Positions 4,070-30,587 of a stretch of DNA of 32,000 bases are shown here, one piece after another; the first letter of the stretch is position 1; every line of letters begins with the position of its first letter. The notes under the pieces were generated by a model. The model saw only the letters and a list, made by a program, of their open reading frames with translations, searched no databases and had not been told where the DNA came from. This DNA comes from an uncultured Lentisphaeria bacterium. Its GTDB lineage: Bacteria > Verrucomicrobiota > Lentisphaeria > JABSQK01 > JAJFLO01. Both the position numbers and the translations under genes were made by a program. The stretch lies in the NCBI GenBank assembly GCA_951812855.1, contig OX638337.1, forward strand, positions 1,650,001-1,682,000, in the 5' to 3' direction.

Positions 4070-5326
4070 TCATCGGGCGACGAGATCGGCGGCAGTTTCG
4101 CGTGCTTTTGCGATGATAGTTTCTTCCCCGCTGATATAGCGGTCCTGCATAAGAATTTTACCGTCACAAATTACTGTATTTACCACTGAACCATTTACCG
4201 AATAAACGAAATCCGAAACCCTGCTGTGTCCTGGAACCATCGGCGGCACAGTTGCATCGATTAGTATCATATCGGCAAGTTTACCTTCTTTTATTTCACC
4301 ACAGTTCGCGGAGAATATGGATGCTGTATTTCGAGTAACACAGTCAAATACGCAGTCAGCCGGTGCTGTTGTCGGGTCACCTGTTCTTGATTTTTCGACA
4401 AGAGCAGTGAATTTCATTTCTTCAAACAAATCAAAATTATTATTTGAGGCAACACCATCCGTACCAATTCCGATCAAAATTCCAGCCTCCTGTATTCTTG
4501 TAAACGGAAAAACTCCTGCGGACAGTTTCATATTTGCACACGGATTCGTCAGAATGCCGACGTTATACTGATTTAACAGTTCAAGTTCCCTGTCATCAAG
4601 CCAAATTGCATGGGCGATGCTCACGTTATCAGCTAACACACCGATTTTTTCGAGGTATTCAACCGGTCGTACACCATGCTGATCTATACAATCATGCACT
4701 TCTTTCTCGGTTTCGGATAAATGCAAATGCAGGTTCAATTTGTTTGATTTTGCAAATCCCTGAGCCCAGCTAAGACTATCTGCACTTACTGTATAGATTG
4801 CATGAGGACCAATGCAGTATGAAATTCGTTCCGGAAAAGATTTACTTAATCTAAATTCTTCTTCAATGACTCTCTTCTGTTGAGCAGATTTTTCCTTGTC
4901 AAACAAATCGATTAATACTCCGGAAAGAGACGCTCGCAGACCCATTTCATTTACGGCTTTTACCGACCCGGGCCAGAACCAATACATATCATTAAAAAAC
5001 GTTGTCCCACACTTAATCATTTCCAGGCACGCCAGCTTAGTGCCCCAATAAACATCCTCTTCTGTCATTTTTGCTTCAATAGGCCAGATTTTATCATTCA
5101 GCCAGTCGAATAACGACATATCATCTCCAAACCCTCTGAGCAATGTCATCGCAGCATGTGTATGCCCATTCATTAAACCGGGCAGAAGAATTTTACCCTG
5201 AGCATCAATCACATTATCAGCCTTGCAGTTTATAGCAGATGAAATCTGATCAATCCGGTTATCCTGAATATGTAAATCCGTCTTACTCCCGTTTAATATG
5301 GCGTTTTTTATCAGGAGACTCATAGA
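4070..5326 (-). CDS. mtaD: 5-methylthioadenosine/S-adenosylhomocysteine deaminase (amidohydrolase superfamily)
   Basis: LLPGLMNGHTHAAMTLLRGFGDDMSLFDWL, HLSETEKEV and GIGTDGVASNN are the metal-binding motifs of the MtaD/TRZ-ATZ amidohydrolases. The track ORF extends to 5377, but the homology-consistent start is MSLLIKNAIL at 5326. Confidence 0.85.
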   Translation of the reverse strand, partial: SMSLLIKNAILNGSKTDLHIQDNRIDQISSAINCKADNVIDAQGKILLPGLMNGHTHAAMTLLRGFGDDMSLFDWLNDKIWPIEAKMTEEDVYWGTKLACLEMIKCGTTFFNDMYWFWPGSVKAVNEMGLRASLSGVLIDLFDKEKSAQQKRVIEEEFRLSKSFPERISYCIGPHAIYTVSADSLSWAQGFAKSNKLNLHLHLSETEKEVHDCIDQHGVRPVEYLEKIGVLADNVSIAHAIWLDDRELELLNQYNVGILTNPCANMKLSAGVFPFTRIQEAGILIGIGTDGVASNNNFDLFEEMKFTALVEKSRTGDPTTAPADCVFDCVTRNTASIFSANCGEIKEGKLADMILIDATVPPMVPGHSRVSDFVYSVNGSVVNTVICDGKILMQDRYISGEETIIAKARETAADLVAR

Positions 5327-7556: not shown

Positions 7557-8831
7557 ATGCAAGAGACAATAAAAAACAGAACGATATTTTGTAAAGACAA
7601 TCTTGATATTCTCGAAGGAATAAACACGGAGACGATTGATCTTGTTTACCTTGATCCGCCATTTAATAAAAAGAAAGTATTTACCGCTCCAATCGGTACC
7701 AGTGCTGAAGGTGCGAGCTTCAAAGATATATTTACCGAAGCGGATTTGAAGGAAGAGTGGGTACAGGAGATTCGTGAAGATTGGCCGAATGTCTACGAAC
7801 TGTTAAACGCAGTAAAAAACATTGAGGGGAGAAGTTCGTATAATTTTTGCTACCTTGCCTATATGGCTATTCGGTTAATAGAATGTCACAGAGTGCTAAA
7901 AAATACAGGCAGTGTTTATTTACATTGTGACGCTACCATGAGTCATTACTTAAAATTATTGCTTGATTGTATATTTGGGGAAAAAAATTTTAAGAATGAG
8001 ATTGTATGGTGTTATACAGGACCCAGTAATACAAAACGATATTACCCTAGAAAACACGATAGTTTGTTTTTCTATGTTAAAAATGCACAAGATAACTATA
8101 TATTTAACACCCAAGCCATAAAAATCCCATACGCTAAATTAGAGACAGGAAAAACAGGTGGTATATTTAAGCAAGCCGCAACCTTACATAAAGCGGGAAA
8201 AATACCAGAGGATTGGTGGGAAGAAAACAGAGATAATATGACCCCTGTAGGGCGTATACAAACAGAGCGCACGGGTTACCCGACACAAAAACCGCTTGCA
8301 CTGTTAGAGCGCATTATCAAGGCCAGCAGCAGCGAGGGTGATGTAGTGCTGGACCCGTTCTGCGGGTGTGCGACCACTTGCGTGGCAGCAGAGCGTTTAA
8401 GCAGACGATGGATTGGGATAGATGTATCGGTGAAGGCATACGAATTGGTGCAGGAAAGAATCAGAAATATGTACGAAATACGACAAGGAAAACTGGAAGA
8501 AGGCGAGTTATCTAAAACATATTTTTCTACCACGGCACCAACTCGTACCGATGACGGGGCAAATGCCAAGGATCAAAAATATGTTTATATTATCTCACAC
8601 CCACAATACGAAGGAGAGTATAAGGTTGGTATCGCAAGCGATGTAAAAAGCCGCCTGAGCAGTTATCAAACGAGCGATCCAAACCGAGACTACAAACTGG
8701 AATATAAACAGCTTACCGAACACTACCGGGCATTAGAGCGACATATCCACAATCAGTTTGATAGCCGACAGGAGTGGGTTCGTGCCGAGATGCAAGAGAT
8801 AATCAACGCGATGAAAAGCTATCGGCCTTGA
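7557..8831 (+). CDS. DNA methyltransferase (beta-class N6A/N4C, DPPF motif) fused to a C-terminal T5orf172/GIY-YIG-like domain
   Basis: Motif IV (DLVYLDPPFN) lies near the N-terminus and motif I (VLDPFCGCATTCVAAERL) lies later, which is the beta-class order. The C-terminal 90 aa (KYVYIISHPQYEGEYKVGIASDVKSRLSSYQTSDP...ALERHIHNQF...QEWV) match the T5orf172 pattern. No restriction endonuclease partner was recognised. Confidence 0.88.
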   Translation: MQETIKNRTIFCKDNLDILEGINTETIDLVYLDPPFNKKKVFTAPIGTSAEGASFKDIFTEADLKEEWVQEIREDWPNVYELLNAVKNIEGRSSYNFCYLAYMAIRLIECHRVLKNTGSVYLHCDATMSHYLKLLLDCIFGEKNFKNEIVWCYTGPSNTKRYYPRKHDSLFFYVKNAQDNYIFNTQAIKIPYAKLETGKTGGIFKQAATLHKAGKIPEDWWEENRDNMTPVGRIQTERTGYPTQKPLALLERIIKASSSEGDVVLDPFCGCATTCVAAERLSRRWIGIDVSVKAYELVQERIRNMYEIRQGKLEEGELSKTYFSTTAPTRTDDGANAKDQKYVYIISHPQYEGEYKVGIASDVKSRLSSYQTSDPNRDYKLEYKQLTEHYRALERHIHNQFDSRQEWVRAEMQEIINAMKSYRP

Positions 8832-11892: not shown

Positions 11893-12291
11893 TTATTTAT
11901 TAGAGTTATTTTTATTCGGTTGGTTTTGATTGCGAACGGATTCAATTTCATCATGGATTTGTTGCTTAATGATTGCTTGATTTTGAAACTTTTTGGTATT
12001 ATTTTTCAAGTGTTTTTTACGAACCGCTTCTTTTCTTGCCTTTTTCCTGATTTTTTCTTGAGGATCATTGTCAACTTGATCATTATTTTGTCGTTCTGTA
12101 CTTTCGAAGTATTCTAATCGGCCATTTAAGTTGTCATGCAAGGCTTTTTGCACATTATGATACTTATCAATTTTCTGCTGTAATTGAATTGGTAAATTAT
12201 CTTTACTATTGGTCTATGAATTTACTTGTAAACTTAAAAACGAAATGCTTAGATATAATGATATTATTGAGATAGAAATACCTTTTTTCAT
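11893..12291 (-). pseudogene. Small secreted Lys/Gln-rich protein with an in-frame TAG just after the signal peptide
   Basis: The ATG at 12291 gives MKKGISISIISLYLSISFLSLQVNS[TAG 12214-12216]TNSKDNLPIQLQQKIDKYHNV. This is in frame with the track ORF 11893-12153. The mature part is low-complexity and K/Q/N-rich. Confidence 0.45.
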
Positions 12292-12390: not shown

Positions 12391-12717
12391 TTAATATTCC
12401 TTTTGTTTTTCTCCACCTGTATCAAAAAATAAGTCTATATATTCCTCAGGGGGAGAATCATCATCGCGCATCAACGAGAAAATTTCTGAACCTGATTCCG
12501 GTTTATCTATGTAAGTGTGGTAACCTTGTGCCAATCCTATGTAAATGCATTCCTTCGATTCCTTGTACTGATGCGCTTCATTTTCAGCCATCTCTACAGC
12601 TTGTTTTAAATCACTAGCTTTCCAAAGTAAAATCCTTTCCTCATATAAGAATTCTTCTTTACTTTTTTCAAGTTTTGGGTGACGAAAGATACAGCGTACT
12701 GAATGCCATTTTTCCAT
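12391..12717 (-). CDS. Hypothetical protein, DUF4288-like pattern
   Basis: The 108-aa ORF has KWHSVRCIF...LYEERILLWKASDLKQAVEMAENEA...GSEIFSLMR, which resembles the DUF4288 pattern as recalled from memory. This was not verified. Confidence 0.55.
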   Translation of the reverse strand: MEKWHSVRCIFRHPKLEKSKEEFLYEERILLWKASDLKQAVEMAENEAHQYKESKECIYIGLAQGYHTYIDKPESGSEIFSLMRDDDSPPEEYIDLFFDTGGEKQKEY

Positions 12718-13384: not shown

Positions 13385-13675
13385 TTATTCTGTTCCTAAA
13401 CCTATATCCCAAGAATCGATGTCAATAAATTTTTTCAAGGGATCATCTGGTCTAATTAATCGCGGATCAATCGAATAACACTCCCCCAGTTTCTCGAATA
13501 CTTTTTGGAAATTTGAATACTCTAATCTATAATCTTTAATCAGATCGTCATATAACGTTTTTAATGGCAGTGGTTCTCTAAATCCAAATAGTTGTTTTCT
13601 AATTTTTTGCCGATAAACTGATGTTAAAAAAAGCCAAATTAGAAATATTAGAAAAATTGTTATCAATTTAGTCAT
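13385..13675 (-). CDS. Putative immunity protein for orphan cassette 3 (N-terminal TM anchor)
   Basis: The 96-aa ORF has a hydrophobic N-terminus (MTKLITIFLIFLIWLFLTSV). Its ATG overlaps the stop of the upstream toxin-tip frame in an ATGA junction at 13671-13675, which is typical of toxin-immunity coupling. Confidence 0.55.
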   Translation of the reverse strand: MTKLITIFLIFLIWLFLTSVYRQKIRKQLFGFREPLPLKTLYDDLIKDYRLEYSNFQKVFEKLGECYSIDPRLIRPDDPLKKFIDIDSWDIGLGTE

Positions 13676-13990
13676 GGATTTGTAATAGATGACGGAAGAT
13701 TGACATATACTGCCCCTCCAATAAAAACACCTGCATTATAATAACCGATTCCCACTGTAATTGATCCAATAAATTCAGCTCCTTTTCTTATAATGGCAGT
13801 TCTTGCACCAGATACTCCTCTCAGTTAAACTTTTGTCACCCGGTTCCAAACCTAGGGCATCGTAAAGAGTTATCGGATTGTTTGTTACAAACTGATATAA
13901 ATTTATTCCACGTCCTTCACCTACCGGGTCTCTACTTAACCACCGCATGGAATCGGGATCATACCAGCGGCAGCCATAGTATATTCTCAA
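13671..13990 (-). pseudogene. Orphan RHS core-end plus C-terminal tip cassette 3, frameshifted
   Basis: RIYYGCRWYDPDSMRWLSRDPVGEGRGINLYQFVTNNPITLYDALGLEP is nearly identical at the DNA level to the core end of the main RHS gene. After a frameshift near 13825-13835 the tip continues as LRGVSGARTAIIRKGAEFIGSITVGIGYYNAGVFIGGAVYVNLPSSITNP. Confidence 0.65.
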
Positions 13991-14047: not shown

Positions 14048-14392
14048 TTAGTCAAGAGAAATAAGACCAAGAAACTTAAAAACAAGTACAGAAAAAATAC
14101 CTGACGCCATCCACAACAACATTCGTTTGTATGTTGACAAATAAAAATTTTGAAATTCTTCGCTCAAGAACTGTGAACGAGCTTTGGGGTCGATTATCGC
14201 CTGCCAAATATATTTAGGATCTGAAGTAGATATCAGTAATGGTATTTGAAATGAAACAATACCCCAAAAAATCAATGCAATATCACTATCCGTAGCCGTA
14301 GATATATACTTCCAACCGGATATACATAATGGTAAGAATATGACCCCGCATAGGACTGATGTAGCAGGCTGTCGAAAATCATACTTGTTCAT
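14048..14392 (-). CDS. Small integral membrane protein, about 3 TM segments (possible immunity component)
   Basis: The 114-aa ORF has three hydrophobic stretches: VLCGVIFLPLCISGW, IALIFWGIVSFQIPLLI and MLLWMASGIFSVLVFKFLGLI. Confidence 0.6.
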   Translation of the reverse strand: MNKYDFRQPATSVLCGVIFLPLCISGWKYISTATDSDIALIFWGIVSFQIPLLISTSDPKYIWQAIIDPKARSQFLSEEFQNFYLSTYKRMLLWMASGIFSVLVFKFLGLISLD

Positions 14393-14454: not shown

Positions 14455-15102
14455 TTAGCGTTTCTCTGTCAGTTCATGTAGTGCGTTCTCAATTGATGAT
14501 TTTGCTGCAACTGTTTTTTCTTTTACTAATGCTTTAGATAGCACATCAATAATAGTTGCAGAATTTTCTGATGTGATCAAATCTAATATAAGGTTTGCGG
14601 CAGCACAACGTATTCGATAGAATTCATGATCAAGGCCTTCAAGAAAGAGTTTGAAATATTTATATTCTCCAAGTTTCGTTAAAGCATAATAAATGCGAAT
14701 TTTTTCTTCTTCTTTTGACTTAGGCAATTGTTGTTGCAGAACGTGGATTTTGTCTTTATCTCCAATATTTCCGATAGCAATAACCGCTTCAGATCGAACA
14801 AGTTCGTCTTCATCATCTAATAATTCGATAATATTATTAAGAGCGTCAAAAACCTTCCAATCTCCAAGAATTTCAAGAGCTGCAACACGCACTAATTCAT
14901 CTTGGTCAATGAGCGATCTGACAACTTGGTTTTTAACCTCCGGTAAATTGATTAAACCAAGTGCTTCAACTGCCCTGAATCTAACTTCAGAATCATCGTT
15001 ACTACAGTATTTTATTAACGTCTGAATTCGATCGATAATTTCTTCTGAAAGATTTTCAATTTCTTCAAGTTCTTTGATTTTTCCCAGGTAATTTTCTGAC
15101 AT
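14455..15102 (-). CDS. HEAT-repeat protein (PBS-lyase HEAT-like repeats)
   Basis: Units of about 31 aa recur: DDSEVRFRAVEALGLI, DQDELVRVAALEILGDW, DEDELVRSEAVIAIGNIG and HEFYRIRCAAANLIL. Confidence 0.8.
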   Translation of the reverse strand: MSENYLGKIKELEEIENLSEEIIDRIQTLIKYCSNDDSEVRFRAVEALGLINLPEVKNQVVRSLIDQDELVRVAALEILGDWKVFDALNNIIELLDDEDELVRSEAVIAIGNIGDKDKIHVLQQQLPKSKEEEKIRIYYALTKLGEYKYFKLFLEGLDHEFYRIRCAAANLILDLITSENSATIIDVLSKALVKEKTVAAKSSIENALHELTEKR

Positions 15103-15170: not shown

Positions 15171-15911
15171 TTAATTACAATTCCGCTTCGATTTATTTCT
15201 ATTTTTTCGAAATTTATCTTCTTCATCTCTCTTCTTGATTTTCTCTTCTTCAAGTCGAATGCTGTTGATGACCTTATTGATACTGTCAATTTGCTCTTGA
15301 TCTTTTTTTTGCTTAACAACAGCCTCTAACTTACTACGAATTTCCGTACGGTTCTCGTCATTGACTAACTCACGGAGATCATTTGCAGAGGATATTACAA
15401 CACGAGTATTTTCGTGGTCTAATCGGGCGACGAGCCTGCCAAAATATTCATCTTTTCCCAACCTAATGAGTGCAAAATAGATTGATCCCAGCTCCAATTC
15501 ACCTGCTTTGAGGAGACGTTCTTCCAAAAGAGTTATTGAGCTTTTAACTCCTATCTCGCCTATCGCAGTAGCAGCCCAGGATCTGCAAATCTCATTTGGT
15601 TCTTCCTCTTCGTCGATAAAATCAACAACCCAATCAAGAAAAACCACATGCTTCCATTCAGAAATGCACCTTAACGCTCCAGCACGGACATTTGCATCTT
15701 CATCATAAAGGGCCTCTTTCAAACGCTCTTCAACTTCCCATGTCCGAAGTTTCCAAAGTTGATCAATAGCACTCTCTCTGATTTTCGAATTTTCATGCTC
15801 AAGCAGTTTGATCAATCGATCTACATCGCATCCAATTCTGTGGGAAATAGTTTCTATCTCTTGCAAACAATTACGTTCTTCATCGTTGTTTTCCATAAAT
15901 CCTGTACTCAC
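15171..15911 (-). CDS. HEAT-repeat protein with a Lys/Glu-rich C-terminal tail
   Basis: HEAT-like units are present: ENSKIRESAIDQLWKL, DEDANVRAGALRCISEW, ICRSWAATAIGEIG and HENTRVVISSANDL. It is a paralog-like neighbour of 14455-15102. Confidence 0.8.
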   Translation of the reverse strand: MSTGFMENNDEERNCLQEIETISHRIGCDVDRLIKLLEHENSKIRESAIDQLWKLRTWEVEERLKEALYDEDANVRAGALRCISEWKHVVFLDWVVDFIDEEEEPNEICRSWAATAIGEIGVKSSITLLEERLLKAGELELGSIYFALIRLGKDEYFGRLVARLDHENTRVVISSANDLRELVNDENRTEIRSKLEAVVKQKKDQEQIDSINKVINSIRLEEEKIKKRDEEDKFRKNRNKSKRNCN

Positions 15912-15946
15912 TTGGATTAATTTTTTTCCAGTTAGTATAGCTAAAA

Positions 15947-16474
15947 TTAATTACATGCATTTTTCTTTTGTCGTTTTTCTTTCAATTCCTTTCTTTTTTG
16001 TTTGCCACTTTTGGGAGGCGGCTTCTGGTCGTTCATCTGTCGATTCTGTCTCTTTTTATTCGCCTTTTCTTGTGTTGTTCTTTTACCTCCACCTCCAGTT
16101 TCCCTGATATTATTTTTACCATATTGAGCCATCGCCGTTATTGTCTGATCGACGATGACTGCAGTCGCGCCGAAGCCTAATCCAATTGCTATTGCTGCTG
16201 TGCCTCCCGGAGAAAAAACTGGTACAAGGACTAGTGGATTTTCTCCAAGTGCATCAAGAAATACTATGGGATTGTTGGCGACAAACCTATGTAAATTTAT
16301 TCCACCTCCTTCACCTAATGGATCTCTTGATATCCACCGCATTGATTCTGGATCATACCAACGATAACCATAGTAAATTAAACCTGATTCAGCATCTCTG
16401 TACTTTGTGGAAAAACCGAAATTTTGAACGTAAGTTTCGGAAGTTCCGCTCAACTTTCCAAGGGGATTATACAA
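15947..16474 (-). CDS. Orphan RHS core-end plus C-terminal toxin tip cassette 2
   Basis: YNPLGKLSGTSETYVQNFGFSTKYRDAESGLIYYGYRWYDPESMRWISRDPLGEGGGINLHRFVANNPIVFLDALGENP parallels the last 80 aa of the main RHS gene. A unique 95-aa tip follows, with a Gly/Ala-rich hydrophobic segment and a polybasic tail. Confidence 0.8.
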   Translation of the reverse strand: MYNPLGKLSGTSETYVQNFGFSTKYRDAESGLIYYGYRWYDPESMRWISRDPLGEGGGINLHRFVANNPIVFLDALGENPLVLVPVFSPGGTAAIAIGLGFGATAVIVDQTITAMAQYGKNNIRETGGGGKRTTQEKANKKRQNRQMNDQKPPPKSGKQKRKELKEKRQKKNACN

Positions 16475-16560
16475 AAGTCCCCTAAAGAATGCCTACTAAC
16501 AGTTTTTAAGTCATCAAAAATTGACAATACATATCTTAACTGGTGGCAAGAAGCTATACG

Positions 16561-17121
16561 CTAATTCGGATATTTGTTCATTGTGGATAACGTTTCGATT
16601 ATTCTTTCATCCTGTGAATCAACAAAAAGACGATCAACATCAAAAATGTAAAATCTTGATTCCCCATTTATTTCTCCGTCTTGGGTAAATCTATCTACAA
16701 CGATCAGCTCATCTCGAATTTCTTGTACTTTCCCAATTATTGAATACTCATCATCTTTTGTTTTAATATTAAAAAGGCAGATCTTTTGACGTTTAAAGGC
16801 TTGCTGCACTGTGATTTTGAACAAATCGCTATCAGCCTCTAATCTTGACTGTTGAATAAATTCTTCATGCTGCTGGTTTTGGGCCTCGTATAAATATTCT
16901 ATTTTCCTTTCATATTGTGTCCCTCTAACAACATGAAACAAATCTTCTAAACATCTAACTAAATAACCATCAGCCAGACCATATTCAGAGATGTGACGCA
17001 GTAGTACATGATTATTACTGACATAGTGAATGAAACCCACAGCACAGTTATGTGGGTCATATCTATCCGTGTATATTGATACAACTTCATTCAGGTATTT
17101 TAATGTTAAAAGCGGTTCCAT
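16561..17121 (-). CDS. Putative immunity protein, with an internally duplicated domain of about 70 aa
   Basis: This 186-aa acidic protein lies downstream of toxin tip 1. The N- and C-terminal halves share a pattern: VVSIYTDRYDPHNCAVGFIHYVSNNHVLLRHISEYGLADGYLVRCLEDLFHV versus ICLFNIKTKDDEYSIIGKVQEIRDELIVVDRFTQDGEINGESRFYIFDVDRLFV. Confidence 0.6.
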   Translation of the reverse strand: MEPLLTLKYLNEVVSIYTDRYDPHNCAVGFIHYVSNNHVLLRHISEYGLADGYLVRCLEDLFHVVRGTQYERKIEYLYEAQNQQHEEFIQQSRLEADSDLFKITVQQAFKRQKICLFNIKTKDDEYSIIGKVQEIRDELIVVDRFTQDGEINGESRFYIFDVDRLFVDSQDERIIETLSTMNKYPN

Positions 17122-17422
17122 TTTTCCTTTCCCCTAAATATATTGCCTCTAAATTTTATTTATTTCAATGATTATCGGAGCATCCTGCGAAAGTATGTTC
17201 GAGATTCTGAGTCCTGAAATTGCAAATTTTCTGAAGAAGTGTAGATGTGTATAACATTGTCTCTATGCGTTTTTTATGCGGTCAGTGACGATCTGGTTTT
17301 ATGAACAAGGTCCGGCCGAAAAGAGTTTTGCAAGATGCTCATCAAAATATAGCATAAGTATAAAGAAGGCATACGATATAAAACATTGTTTTTGCTATTT
17401 ACAGCTTTTCCCTCGTTTCTTT

Positions 17423-17805
17423 TTATTTCCTTTTCTTTTGAGGCTGCCTATATTTTAATTTCTTTTTTGATCCTGTTCTAGATGAATGTGCATCCGAATG
17501 TTTATCCCAATTTGAGGGTCTTTTGTTGTTACCGTGCCCTAATTCCGCTCCATTTGGAGCATCAAAGCCCCTACCCATTCTAGAAATCATGTCAACGAAC
17601 CAAGCTGTAAAACCAGCTGAGACAAGAATTTTCCCTGCACCTCCAGCCAGAGGAACAACTAATGGGTTTTCACCTAAAGCGTCAATAAATACAAGTGGAT
17701 TGTTGGCGACAAACTGATATAAATTTATTCCACCTCCTTCACCTACCGGGTCTCTACTTAACCACCGCATTGAATCGGGATCATACCAGCGATAACCATA
17801 ATATA
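17423..17805 (-). CDS. RHS core-end motif plus C-terminal toxin tip 1, out of frame with the RHS body
   Basis: (LIYYGYRWYDPDS)MRWLSRDPVGEGGGINLYQFVANNPLVFIDALGENP is followed by a 79-aa tip: LVVPLAGGAGKILVSAGFTAWFVDM...KKKLKYRQPQKKRK. It is separated from the body by the duplicated TTAAT at 17806-17815. Confidence 0.8.
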
Positions 17806-27669: not shown

Positions 27670-28543
27670 ATGTTACAAAAACTTACAAAATTATTTCCTT
27701 TATTTGAAACTGTAGATTTTCAACTCACCGAACCTTATAAAATCCCATTTAAAGATCATGATATCGATTCTTTTGAATCGCTGATGAATACGCAATCAGG
27801 CACACTTGTCTCCTTTTCCAATGAAACACAAATCATACGCCTGTCATTGTCCGACAAGCAAAATTCCACTTTTTTTATCAAGCACAGTTTAAGCACAAGA
27901 TTTAATCGATCAATTACAATGTGTTTTCGATTAGCAAAACCACATACCCGGAGCATTAACGAATTTCAGCTTATTTCCCATCTTAAAAAAAGTGGATTTC
28001 CGGCCATGATTCCGGCAGAATGGGGAGAACAACGATTTTTAGGGTTACCTGTGCGAGACGTTCTTGTTGTAAGGGAAATCAAGGGAGTTGAACTCGAAGA
28101 AACATTTCTTAAAGCTGAAAATTCCGAAAAAGTGTAGATTAGTAAAACAAATGGGTACATTTTTAGGTCAACTGAACAAAGCTGGTTTTTTTCATACCAT
28201 TTGATTAAGAGATATCATTATTGCAAGTAAAAAAGATGACTATTGGGAGGCTGATAGTCTGGTACTTATTGATCGGGAAGTGACGAAGCCCCGGCCACGT
28301 AAATTCAGTCCCGACAAATGCTGTTACTGTTTGGCACGATGTTACGCAAAGTTTATTCGTGCAGAATTCACGCTGACACCAAAGCAGCGCCTGATTTTTC
28401 TAGACGCTTATATCCAGGAAATTTCTCCTTCCTGGTATCCCGGAAAACGTGAATTGTTAATCCGGACTTCCACCTGTCTCAGGAGAATTGTCAAAGATAA
28501 ACGATACATCAAGGCGTCAAAAGCCTTGAAAGGGAAGCTGTAG
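27670..28543 (+). pseudogene. Third LPS kinase paralog, disrupted by a +1 frameshift at an A5 run and an in-frame TGA
   Basis: The N-lobe ORF 27670-28137 ends at a TAG. The +1 frame continues the family pattern (KKCRLVKQMGTFLGQLNKAGFFHTI[TGA 28202-28204]LRDIIIASKKDD...LVLIDRE). Deleting one A from the run at 27127-28131 region, precisely 28127-28131, restores a single frame. Confidence 0.7.
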
Positions 28544-30089: not shown

Positions 30090-30428
30090 TTGCCAAACAT
30101 AGTTGCATTAGTCCGGTTATCCAAAATAAATGACTATATTCCGTTATCAATACTATGTTTGCCGGGGAACGAAAAAAAATATGTGATTGACTGTTTAGAC
30201 TCAAACTCGATATCGTCAGTCGGCGGTTATGTTGACCAATTTGAAGAAGGGTTTTCTACATATTCAGGTTTTAAATATGCTGTTACAGTCACCAATGGGA
30301 CTGCCGCACTTCACTTAAATCTACTCGCATTGAATATTGATGAAGGCAATGAAGTTTTCGTCCCATCAGCAACGTTCACTGCTTCAGCAGATGCGATTCG
30401 ATATACTGGTGCTGATCCTGAAAATTTA
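30090..30428 (+). pseudogene. DegT/DnrJ/EryC1/StrS-family aminotransferase, 5' fragment truncated at repeat copy 2
   Basis: IPLSILCLPGNEKKYVIDCLDSNSISSVGGYVDQFEEGFSTYSGFKYAVTVTNGTAALHLNLLALNIDEGNEVFVPSATFTASADAIRYTGADP matches the N-terminal third of the DegT family. Homology stops exactly where the GC-rich element begins at 30429. The PLP-lysine region is absent. Confidence 0.75.
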
Positions 30429-30587
30429 GGGGGTGTAAGTTTCTTTCTGTAATTTCACTTCTCGTGGTGTCGCCCCGAAGGGAGACCCGAGTGGTTGCGG
30501 CAGCAATCGATTGTGCCGCCACTGCGGAGGGGTTAGACTGGACAAGTAGTATTTGTCTGATCTAACAACCGCAAGAGGAGGTTTTCC
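30429..30587 (+). repeat. GC-rich structured repeat element, copy 2
   Basis: This is the direct-orientation homolog of 7050-7216. It contains a perfect GCGGCA/TGCCGC stem around a loop carrying the palindrome AATCGATT. It also carries the conserved 3' hairpin GGTTAGA-CTG-GACAA/TTGTC-TGA-TCTAAC. Confidence 0.75.

Follow-up and report, generated by a model that had tools for sequence, protein, structure and literature searches.

Layout of the Locus

The window, that is, the whole stretch of 32,000 nucleotides analyzed here, covers positions 1,650,001 to 1,682,000 of contig OX638337.1 (GenBank assembly GCA_951812855.1) from an uncultured Lentisphaeria bacterium. Its minus strand encodes a rearrangement hotspot (RHS) protein followed by short C-terminal cassettes; the subject of this analysis is the small peptides, or tips, encoded directly after the conserved RHS-associated core, together with the genes that adjoin them. 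Judged from its sequence, the region belongs to a known type, an RHS C-terminal cassette with immunity genes, and would represent the 3′ portion of an RHS polymorphic-toxin locus with Sec export, followed by orphan cassettes. The features, in the order in which they are read, are the following:

22210..23124 (−): N-terminal RHS piece, 304 residues, with a signal peptide carrying a lipobox-like FIGC, DUF6531, and a LamG-like 3-keto-disaccharide hydrolase domain
17806..22161 (−): RHS body, 1451 residues, with a CBM30-like domain, 13 RHS/YD repeat matches, and a repeat-free insert of ~310 residues
17804..17813 (−): frameshift scar, a 5-bp duplication seen in the alignment with the intact orphan cassette 2
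17663..17803 (−): RHS-associated core tail 1 (YYGYRWYDPDSMRWLSRDP...FIDALGENP), in a frame other than that of the RHS body
17423..17662 (−): tip 1, 79 residues plus stop (17425..17423)
16561..17121 (−): p186, an acidic (net −11) cytoplasmic protein of 186 residues and of no known family
16235..16474 (−): core of orphan cassette 2, complete (Rhs-associated core, TIGR03696 positions 1–75) and lacking an RHS body upstream
16094..16234 (−): tip 2, conserved N-terminal module (residues 1–47), homologous to tip 4 of a sister strain
15947..16093 (−): tip 2, polybasic tail of 48 residues plus stop (15949..15947)
15171..15911 (−): HEAT-246, a HEAT-repeat protein of 246 residues (GTG start at 15911; 241 residues from ATG)
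14455..15102 (−): HEAT-215, a HEAT-repeat protein of 215 residues, net charge −14
14048..14392 (−): TM114, a protein of 114 residues with three hydrophobic segments
13775..13990 (−): orphan cassette 3, with part of an Rhs core (model positions 31–76) that ends in DALGLEP, then an out-of-register end of 21 residues
13675..13776 (−): "tip 3," the hydrophobic stretch EFIGSITVGIGYYNAGVFIGGAVYVNLPSSITNP, in a frame different from that of orphan tail 3; a frameshifted remnant
13385..13675 (−): protein of 96 residues with an N-terminal membrane anchor (131 residues in the sister strain)

The NCBIfam model for the Rhs-associated core (TIGR03696, Rhs_assc_core) is matched by the open reading frame (ORF) P0003 over positions 1–75 of 76 (E = 1.8e-23), and its C-terminal part by P0001, P0017, and orphan cassette 3; because the model ends at DALG(E), the tips start at the usual RHS tip boundary. 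Here this boundary carries the variant P(L/I)VF(I/L)DALGE instead of PxxxxDPxGL, with Ala for Pro and Glu for Leu. The RHS body terminates partway through the Rhs-associated core, as ...KYKDTDSGLI followed by a stop, and P0001, the ORF called for tail 1 and tip 1 (17423..17770, 115 residues), starts at an internal ATG at 17770. Tip 2 as a whole comprises 95 residues (16234..15950), and orphan cassette 2 including this tip spans 15947..16474.

Tip Sequences and the Sister Strain

Tips 1 and 2 had been singled out in an initial annotation and read exactly as quoted there, with 79 and 95 residues on the minus strand, each directly after DALGENP. Both end in Lys/Arg tracts, as described; they carry net charges of +11 and +14, respectively, with 11 Lys and Arg residues among the last 30 of each. 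Clusters of the type K[KR]x[KR] occur nine times in the 7,575 residues of the window ORFs, three of them within the two tip ORFs, so that the basic tails truly stand out in this region. In tip 1, a weakly hydrophobic Gly/Ala segment with an internal Lys is followed by DMISRMG...AELG and by a basic tail ending in PQKKRK. The shortness of the tips, too, is borne out by comparison: among 45 related RHS tails drawn from the genome-contig collection, the median tip is ~194 residues long and only three have 98 residues or fewer. The hydrophobic stretch attributed to a third tip, GSITVGIGYYNAGVFIGGAVYV, does exist (13767..13702); it lies outside the interval to which it had been assigned and in a frame other than that of its RHS tail.

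The proteins of the window were found in one ENA HiFi assembly (ERZ18545485) and one NCBI record. Short contigs of ERZ18545485 are 100% identical to the window and add no polymorphism data; a second circular contig of 1.94 Mb, here called L053, is ~99.3% identical in the flanks and represents a sister strain. In place of window 17657..15223, which comprises tip 1, p186, orphan cassette 2 including tip 2, and the greater part of HEAT-246, this strain has 240 bp encoding another tip of 98 residues, tip 4, followed directly by HEAT-215. The left breakpoint lies within the conserved tail, where 75 nt are 99% identical to orphan cassette 2 up to SPGG, after which the similarity drops sharply. On the right, the junction is placed 16 codons ahead of the HEAT-246 stop; it is in frame, coincides with an AGAAGAT microhomology, and leaves tip 4 and HEAT-246 with the common ending EDKFRKNRNKSKRNCN and stop (window 15222..15174 with the stop at 15173..15171, minus strand; L053 9881–9932). 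Given this identity between tip 4 and the 3′ end of HEAT-246 over 16 codons, at least one basic tail end appears to have been created by recombination; either HEAT-246 or tip 4 may have been the original owner of the shared ending. Homology between the 3′ ends of tips 2 and 4, which share TGTAATTAAT, is not significant when compared to A-rich controls.

Tips 2 and 4 are 38% identical (BLASTP E = 4e-17), with the similarity confined to their first 47–55 residues (z = 17 versus shuffles) and the homology of the DNA stopping near window 16082. This module of ~50 residues follows the pattern LVLVPVFSPGG - AxxxGxxxG - DQxITAM - G...(D/E)TG, tip 2 having DQTITAM...ETG, and precedes polybasic tails of 25–48 residues, which are disordered and evolve rapidly. 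Across 36 aligned variable codons of the module, the proportion of synonymous differences is saturated (pS = 0.74), that of nonsynonymous differences being 0.30 (pN), and the module has therefore been under purifying selection in the past. Tip 1 bears only a marginal likeness to it (z = 2.6; 36 of 2000 shuffles). These sequences are best read as a family of short C-terminal cassettes restricted to one lineage, comprising tips 2 and 4 and, at a greater distance, tip 1. A motif G.(G/K)NN.R, which the initial annotation had taken to be common to the tips, does not hold up, as tip 2 reads GKNNIR and is no strict match, the occurrences in tips 1 and 2 do not align, and the homologous tip 4 has GKGGNQHVGD instead.

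Search for Homologs

The earlier suggestion that the tips belong to an undescribed family agrees with all database searches conducted, from Pfam, NCBIfam, PADLOC, and PDB to billion-scale protein sets. A search of 5.8 billion proteins by word index (queries: tip 1, tip 2, and a three-tip profile) and an exhaustive HMMER scan of 1.84 billion representatives (with a profile of tips 1 and 2; one made from tips 2 and 4 would be sharper) retrieved only the tips themselves. Nothing was found with the tips and their subfragments in Pfam, NCBIfam, and PADLOC, nor in metagenome contigs (queried with the tip profile and a HEAT profile) and viral contigs; PDB sequence and profile searches with the tips gave matches at chance level only. 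A scan of genome contigs with tail plus tip yielded 48 RHS loci, mostly of Verrucomicrobiota, none of which has a related tip (best BLASTP E = 0.26) or neighboring ORFs like the HEAT proteins, p186, or TM114. A likeness around HGKGERNW in one locus (L007) is not significant. In plasmids, tblastn matched the RHS core only, and the three longest extensions of matches into the tip (Tolypothrix, Streptomyces, and an enterobacterial plasmid) turned out to be unrelated tips.

Candidate Immunity Genes

HEAT-246 starts 35 nt past the stop of tip 2, and HEAT-215 starts 68 nt past the stop of tip 4; both contain HEAT_2 matches (E = 2.3e-14 and 8.2e-23). The two are paralogs with 36% identity (E = 7e-31), the corresponding value for tips 2 and 4 being 38%, and this parallel divergence of tips and HEAT proteins is as expected if they are cognate toxin–immunity pairs. 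HEAT-246 is thus a candidate immunity protein of tip 2 and HEAT-215 of tip 4; p186, which is separated from the stop of tip 1 by a gap of 301 bp, is a candidate for tip 1. All three are acidic (net charges of −11, −11, and −14 for p186, HEAT-246, and HEAT-215, respectively), without signal or transmembrane (TM) segments, the tips being correspondingly basic (+11 to +14). TM114, with its three putative TM segments, is possibly a membrane immunity protein; it is kept in both strains, with three synonymous differences and one nonsynonymous. Imm-HEAT is a recognized immunity class of RHS toxins, present in Verrucomicrobia and Planctomycetes, among others (PMC3482391). Immunity-type genes adjoining a tip, as here, are the signature of a toxin directed against bacteria. 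HEAT-215 is retained in the window strain, which lacks tip 4; it may be kept there as an orphan immunity gene, as a defense against the sister strain living alongside.

The cassette array has at its distal end an acidic DUF4288 protein of 108 residues (12391–12717, minus strand) and a K-rich ORF of 86 residues (11893–12153), both of which could also be orphan genes of the immunity type.

State of the Locus

The gene which should carry the tips is broken at two points. An in-frame TGA (22212..22210) splits the ORF for signal peptide, DUF6531, and LamG from the RHS body. This TGA is a genuine stop in this genome, in which the genes for EF-P, EpmA, and others end in TGA, and an alternative genetic code that would read through TGA was rejected. 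L053 has the TGA as well, plus a 1-bp deletion 17 nt downstream of it (L053 ~5086–5110). The second lesion, at the cassette boundary, is apparent from comparison of the main gene, GGTT TAATT TAATA TATTATGG, with orphan cassette 2, GGTT TAATT TACTATGG; the 5-bp duplication creates a TAA at 17808..17806, one codon before YYGYRWYDP, and throws tail 1 and tip 1 out of frame. Both the duplication and the early RHS stop are identical in L053. The carrier is therefore broken in both known strains and unable to act as a canonical RHS toxin.

Further lesions affect the distal part of the array. The frame of orphan tail 3 ends after 21 residues (GDKSLTERSIWCKNCHYKKRS and stop), and tip 3 needs repair of a frameshift to exist at all. 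A GAA-to-TAA change at 13387 (codon 13385–13387, minus strand), specific to this strain, shortens the membrane-anchored neighbor from 131 residues (p131) to 96; it is intact in L053 (11425–11820). Between the strains, the RHS body has a pN/pS of ~0.45, based on 15 nonsynonymous and nine synonymous differences, counts too few to decide on selection. Elsewhere in the window, an ORF fragment of a DegT/DnrJ aminotransferase (30090–30452, plus strand) covers model positions 6–88 of 360 only, and a Kdo/WaaP kinase is represented by a fragment of 155 residues (27670–28137, plus strand); both would fit a 1.94-Mb genome in which genes are still decaying. With its carrier gene disrupted in each of the two known strains, the system is probably an inactive, decaying fossil, despite the traces of past selection on the tips.

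The two co-occurring strains share both carrier lesions, yet they differ by the cassette swap. Another difference is an insert of 818 bp with two ORFs (128 and 99 residues) at L053 12050–12867, in place of 112 unrelated bases at window 13057–12946; it appears to be further cassette-like variation in the same island.

Other Genes of the Window

Residues 948–1259 of the RHS protein (window 18385–19320, minus strand) form a segment of ~310 residues devoid of YD repeats and without a match in Pfam or PDB, which may be an inserted shell domain. Directly upstream of the RHS gene, a standalone C39 peptidase-domain protein of 184 residues with a hydrophobic N-terminus is encoded (23136–23690, minus strand), and also upstream lies a gene for an acidic thrombospondin-type-3 repeat peptide of 58 residues (23702–23878, minus strand). 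An N6/N4 DNA methyltransferase of 424 residues, fused to a T5orf172/MUG113 (GIY-YIG-like) domain, is encoded at 7557–8831 on the plus strand and is identical in both strains.

A Possible Mode of Action

The reading preferred here, with a confidence somewhat short of even, is that the tips constitute a lineage-restricted, nonenzymatic, antibacterial family of RHS tips which probably acts at the membrane and has been stranded in a decaying locus. A membrane-acting payload without enzymatic activity is favored because the tips bear no enzymatic signature, the conserved module is semihydrophobic, and the putative partners are cytoplasmic and acidic. We infer toxicity, a membrane target, and binding by the HEAT proteins. 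In such a scenario, aspartyl autoproteolysis at DALGE would free the tip from the RHS cocoon into a neighboring bacterium, where the Gly/Ala module would insert and oligomerize in the cytoplasmic membrane, the cationic tail being drawn to the cytoplasmic face by the positive-inside rule and the membrane potential; the outcome would be depolarization or permeabilization rather than catalysis. The acidic cytoplasmic HEAT proteins encoded directly downstream would neutralize the toxin by sequestering it, perhaps aided by the 3-TM protein. If taken one step further, the tips may represent a hitherto undescribed class of RHS payload, that is, a noncatalytic peptide of fewer than 100 residues with a Gly/Ala insertion module of ~50 residues and a polybasic tail kept in composition, neutralized by co-evolving acidic HEAT solenoids; this is a possibility about which we remain doubtful. 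Equally doubtful is what it would amount to, namely a contact toxin resembling a cationic peptide, with an importin-like antidote.

Insertion into the membrane, which the initial annotation had proposed, thus remains the most economical reading, although the segments concerned are marginally hydrophobic: the best 19-mers score 1.86, 1.79, 1.48, and 1.27 on the Kyte-Doolittle scale for tips 2, 4, 1, and 3, respectively. As to the glycine-zipper-like stretch ascribed to the tips, a strict match to (G/A/S)xxxGxxxG or GxxxGxxx(G/S/T), the motif of depolarizing toxins of the TelE/EsxX, Tse4, and CdzC/D type, occurs at a single, homologous place in each of tips 2 and 4, whereas tips 1 and 3 have none. 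Structure prediction with AlphaFold2, using a two-sequence alignment, gave no globular fold for tip 2 (mean predicted local distance difference test score, pLDDT, of 54), only isolated helices at residues 24–40, 54–68, and 77–93; the model was too poor for a fold search, as was that of p186 (pLDDT 51).

Several observations weigh against a membrane-acting family. The strict zipper of tips 2 and 4 also arises in 15–24% of composition-matched shuffles, the segment of tip 1 holds a Lys and no zipper motif, and AlphaFold2 renders residues 1–23 of tip 2 as coil, at low confidence. According to the Hessa scale, the best 19-mers of the tips would require +2.0 to +4.9 kcal/mol, compared to −1.0 to +1.2 in true TM or signal segments of neighboring proteins and +9.4 in a soluble HEAT protein. 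The evidence for the module as a transmembrane glycine zipper is weak. The basic tails of tips 2 and 4 align no better than shuffles (z = −0.6) and that of tip 1 is also unalignable; they could be accidental, with one end shared with a HEAT gene by recombination. The family consists of three members only, all from one sample, and no tip is presently in frame with an intact RHS shell, tips 2 and 3 being orphans. Known membrane toxins of the RHS and contact-dependent growth inhibition (CDI) types, such as Tse5 and the CDI ionophores, use immunity proteins that reside in the membrane. For Imm-HEAT proteins, in turn, the partners linked to date are nucleases, Ntox34 and Tox-REase-7 (PMC3482391).

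Relation to Known Systems

One of the closest known parallels to a membrane-acting tip is Tse5 (RhsP1, PA2684) of Pseudomonas aeruginosa, the C-terminal fragment of which (Tse5-CT; 149 residues, encapsulated by RHS, no predicted domain) inserts in the cytoplasmic membrane and depolarizes the cell (PMC9637101). Like the tips, it is a C-terminal fragment next to an aspartyl-protease motif and without recognizable domain, the release of the tips being predicted. Unlike the tips, it is delivered by a type VI secretion system (T6SS) with PAAR and is countered by Tsi5, a membrane immunity protein with two TM segments; the tips have 79–98 residues, belong to a Sec-exported RHS protein with soluble HEAT candidates, share no sequence similarity with Tse5, and are marginally hydrophobic.

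That a depolarizing toxin can be neutralized by soluble proteins is known from EsxX, a glycine-zipper toxin which is held in check by a soluble cytoplasmic complex and, when it arrives from outside, by membrane proteins (PMC12744356). EsxX and TelE, toxins of the LXG type, resemble the tips in having a short toxic segment without Pfam domain, and the pair of ExiAB (soluble, sequestering the zipper in the cytoplasm) and ExiCD (polytopic, in the membrane) parallels HEAT-215/HEAT-246 and the 3-TM protein. They differ in their type VII export, their occurrence in Firmicutes, and the position of the zipper near the C-terminus; ExiAB is unrelated to HEAT repeats, and the tips show no homology to these toxins and have a minimal zipper motif, tip 1 none. 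In the T6SS DNase Tde1, an N-terminal Gly-rich segment with GxxxG permeabilizes the inner membrane of the target and mediates passage (PMC10240207); there, the zipper precedes a real DNase domain (Ntox15), whereas the tips have a low-complexity basic tail only.

Ntox34 and Tox-REase-7 are borne by RHS proteins and paired with HEAT-repeat immunity (PMC3482391, Zhang et al. 2012), which parallels the tips and their candidate HEAT partners; in contrast to them, the tips lack the signature residues of these families and leave the Pfam models unmatched. As to the architecture of the locus, the window has core-tail fragments with toxin–immunity pairs, and the exchange of cassettes is seen here directly between two strains. 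Koskiniemi and co-workers reportedly described orphan rhs C-terminal cassettes in Salmonella, E. coli, and Serratia, which are arrayed after the main gene and swapped by recombination in the core. Unlike in those arrays, the main gene of the window is inactivated, so that recombination cannot arm a functional carrier.

Alternative Explanations

The alternative that survives best, and which is possible but not likely, regards the locus as pure debris: the tips would be nonfunctional remnants of longer cassettes, with the module as no more than a linker into, or the first part of, a toxin domain since lost, and the tails chance A-rich sequence past deletion or recombination junctions, read up to the next stop. 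That evidence for decayed remnants would speak against the tips as payloads had been stated at the outset, and part of such evidence was indeed found, as the carrier is split twice (by the TGA and the 5-bp duplication) in both strains, tip 3 is frameshifted, p131 is cut by a nonsense mutation in this strain, and other gene fragments are present within the window. The tails are nonhomologous, tip 4 having its last 16 codons in common with HEAT-246 and the similarity of the 3′ ends of tips 2 and 4 not exceeding that of A-rich controls; also, 301 bp separate tip 1 from the next gene, and the tips rank within the shortest ~7% of the 45 related RHS tips. However, tip 2 ends 35 nt before a HEAT gene, which leaves no room for a lost C-terminal domain, and the gap after tip 1 contains no toxin-family remnant in any of its three frames when compared to Pfam, NCBIfam, and PADLOC. 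Further, tips 2 and 4 are at synonymous saturation and yet have retained open frames of 95 and 98 residues with like architecture, and tips and HEAT proteins have co-diverged.

It is also conceivable, but unlikely, that the Gly/Ala module only permeabilizes or crosses the inner membrane and that toxicity resides in the polybasic tail as a cytoplasmic polycation, which, being disordered, would bind nucleic acids, ribosomes, or acidic lipids and would be wrapped by the HEAT protein in the way importins wrap basic peptides. This would accommodate the cytoplasmic, strongly acidic alpha-solenoids as immunity candidates and the basic composition kept in all three tails without conservation of sequence; AlphaFold2 predicts charged helices in the tail (pLDDT up to ~84), and Tde1 sets a precedent for entry through such a module (PMC10240207). 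Yet the tips match no nucleic-acid-binding family, a purely polycationic RHS payload is without precedent, and the tails are perhaps by-products of recombination.

The pairing of Imm-HEAT with Ntox34 and Tox-REase-7 in RHS proteins (PMC3482391) suggests another, though improbable, explanation, that is, that the tips are truncated members of one of these families, or MazF/PemK-like RNases, diverged past recognition. G(K)GN/NN...(D/E)TG-like strings are present in the tips; Ntox34 is an all-alpha family with conserved GNxxD, K, C, C, K, and WxCxH (PMC3482391). Tips 2 and 4, however, contain only one Cys and neither Trp nor WxCxH, and do not match Pfam (PF15606) even at E ≤ 10. The motifs of Tox-REase-7 are GxxxE, IxD, ExK, and Q (PMC3482391), of which neither IxD nor ExK follows the module in the tips, again without a Pfam match. 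A weak likeness to Kid/PemK (Kid residues 41–89; 45 ungapped positions, 16 of them identical; z = 5.2 and 4.1 in pairwise comparison) was rejected, as the profile search of PDB gives E = 1.1, chance level for this database; ChpBK, MazF, and EndoA have z ~0 in this comparison, the Pfam model of PemK finds no match in the tips, and tip 4 alone retrieves nothing from PDB.

Finally, that the tips are effectors directed against eukaryotes, with the PQKKRK-type tail as a functional nuclear localization signal into host nuclei, as the initial annotation had considered, is hardly credible: the enrichment of K-K/R-x-K/R clusters in the tips relative to the other window ORFs and the small genome (1.94 Mb, circular, ~37% GC), compatible with host association, stand against adjoining, co-diverging immunity-type genes, which imply a risk of self-intoxication and hence a bacterial target, against tails that are the nonconserved part (one end made by recombination), against similar K/R-rich ends on a HEAT protein and other small ORFs of this region, and against tips that are not fused to a deliverable RHS.

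Significance

Overall, the initial observation of unusual tips is confirmed in part and its interpretation is partly supported. The locus is a clean natural example of a polymorphic-toxin system being dismantled, in which one strain keeps the HEAT gene of the other as an orphan. The practical value is limited, as the family is confined to one lineage and one sample. Should the tips be active, or have been so until recently, they would add a very small, nonenzymatic type of payload to the RHS repertoire; HEAT-repeat immunity, so far linked only to nuclease toxins, would then be paired with a non-nuclease, and the tips of this lineage would help in interpreting the many short, unannotated tips of polymorphic-toxin loci.

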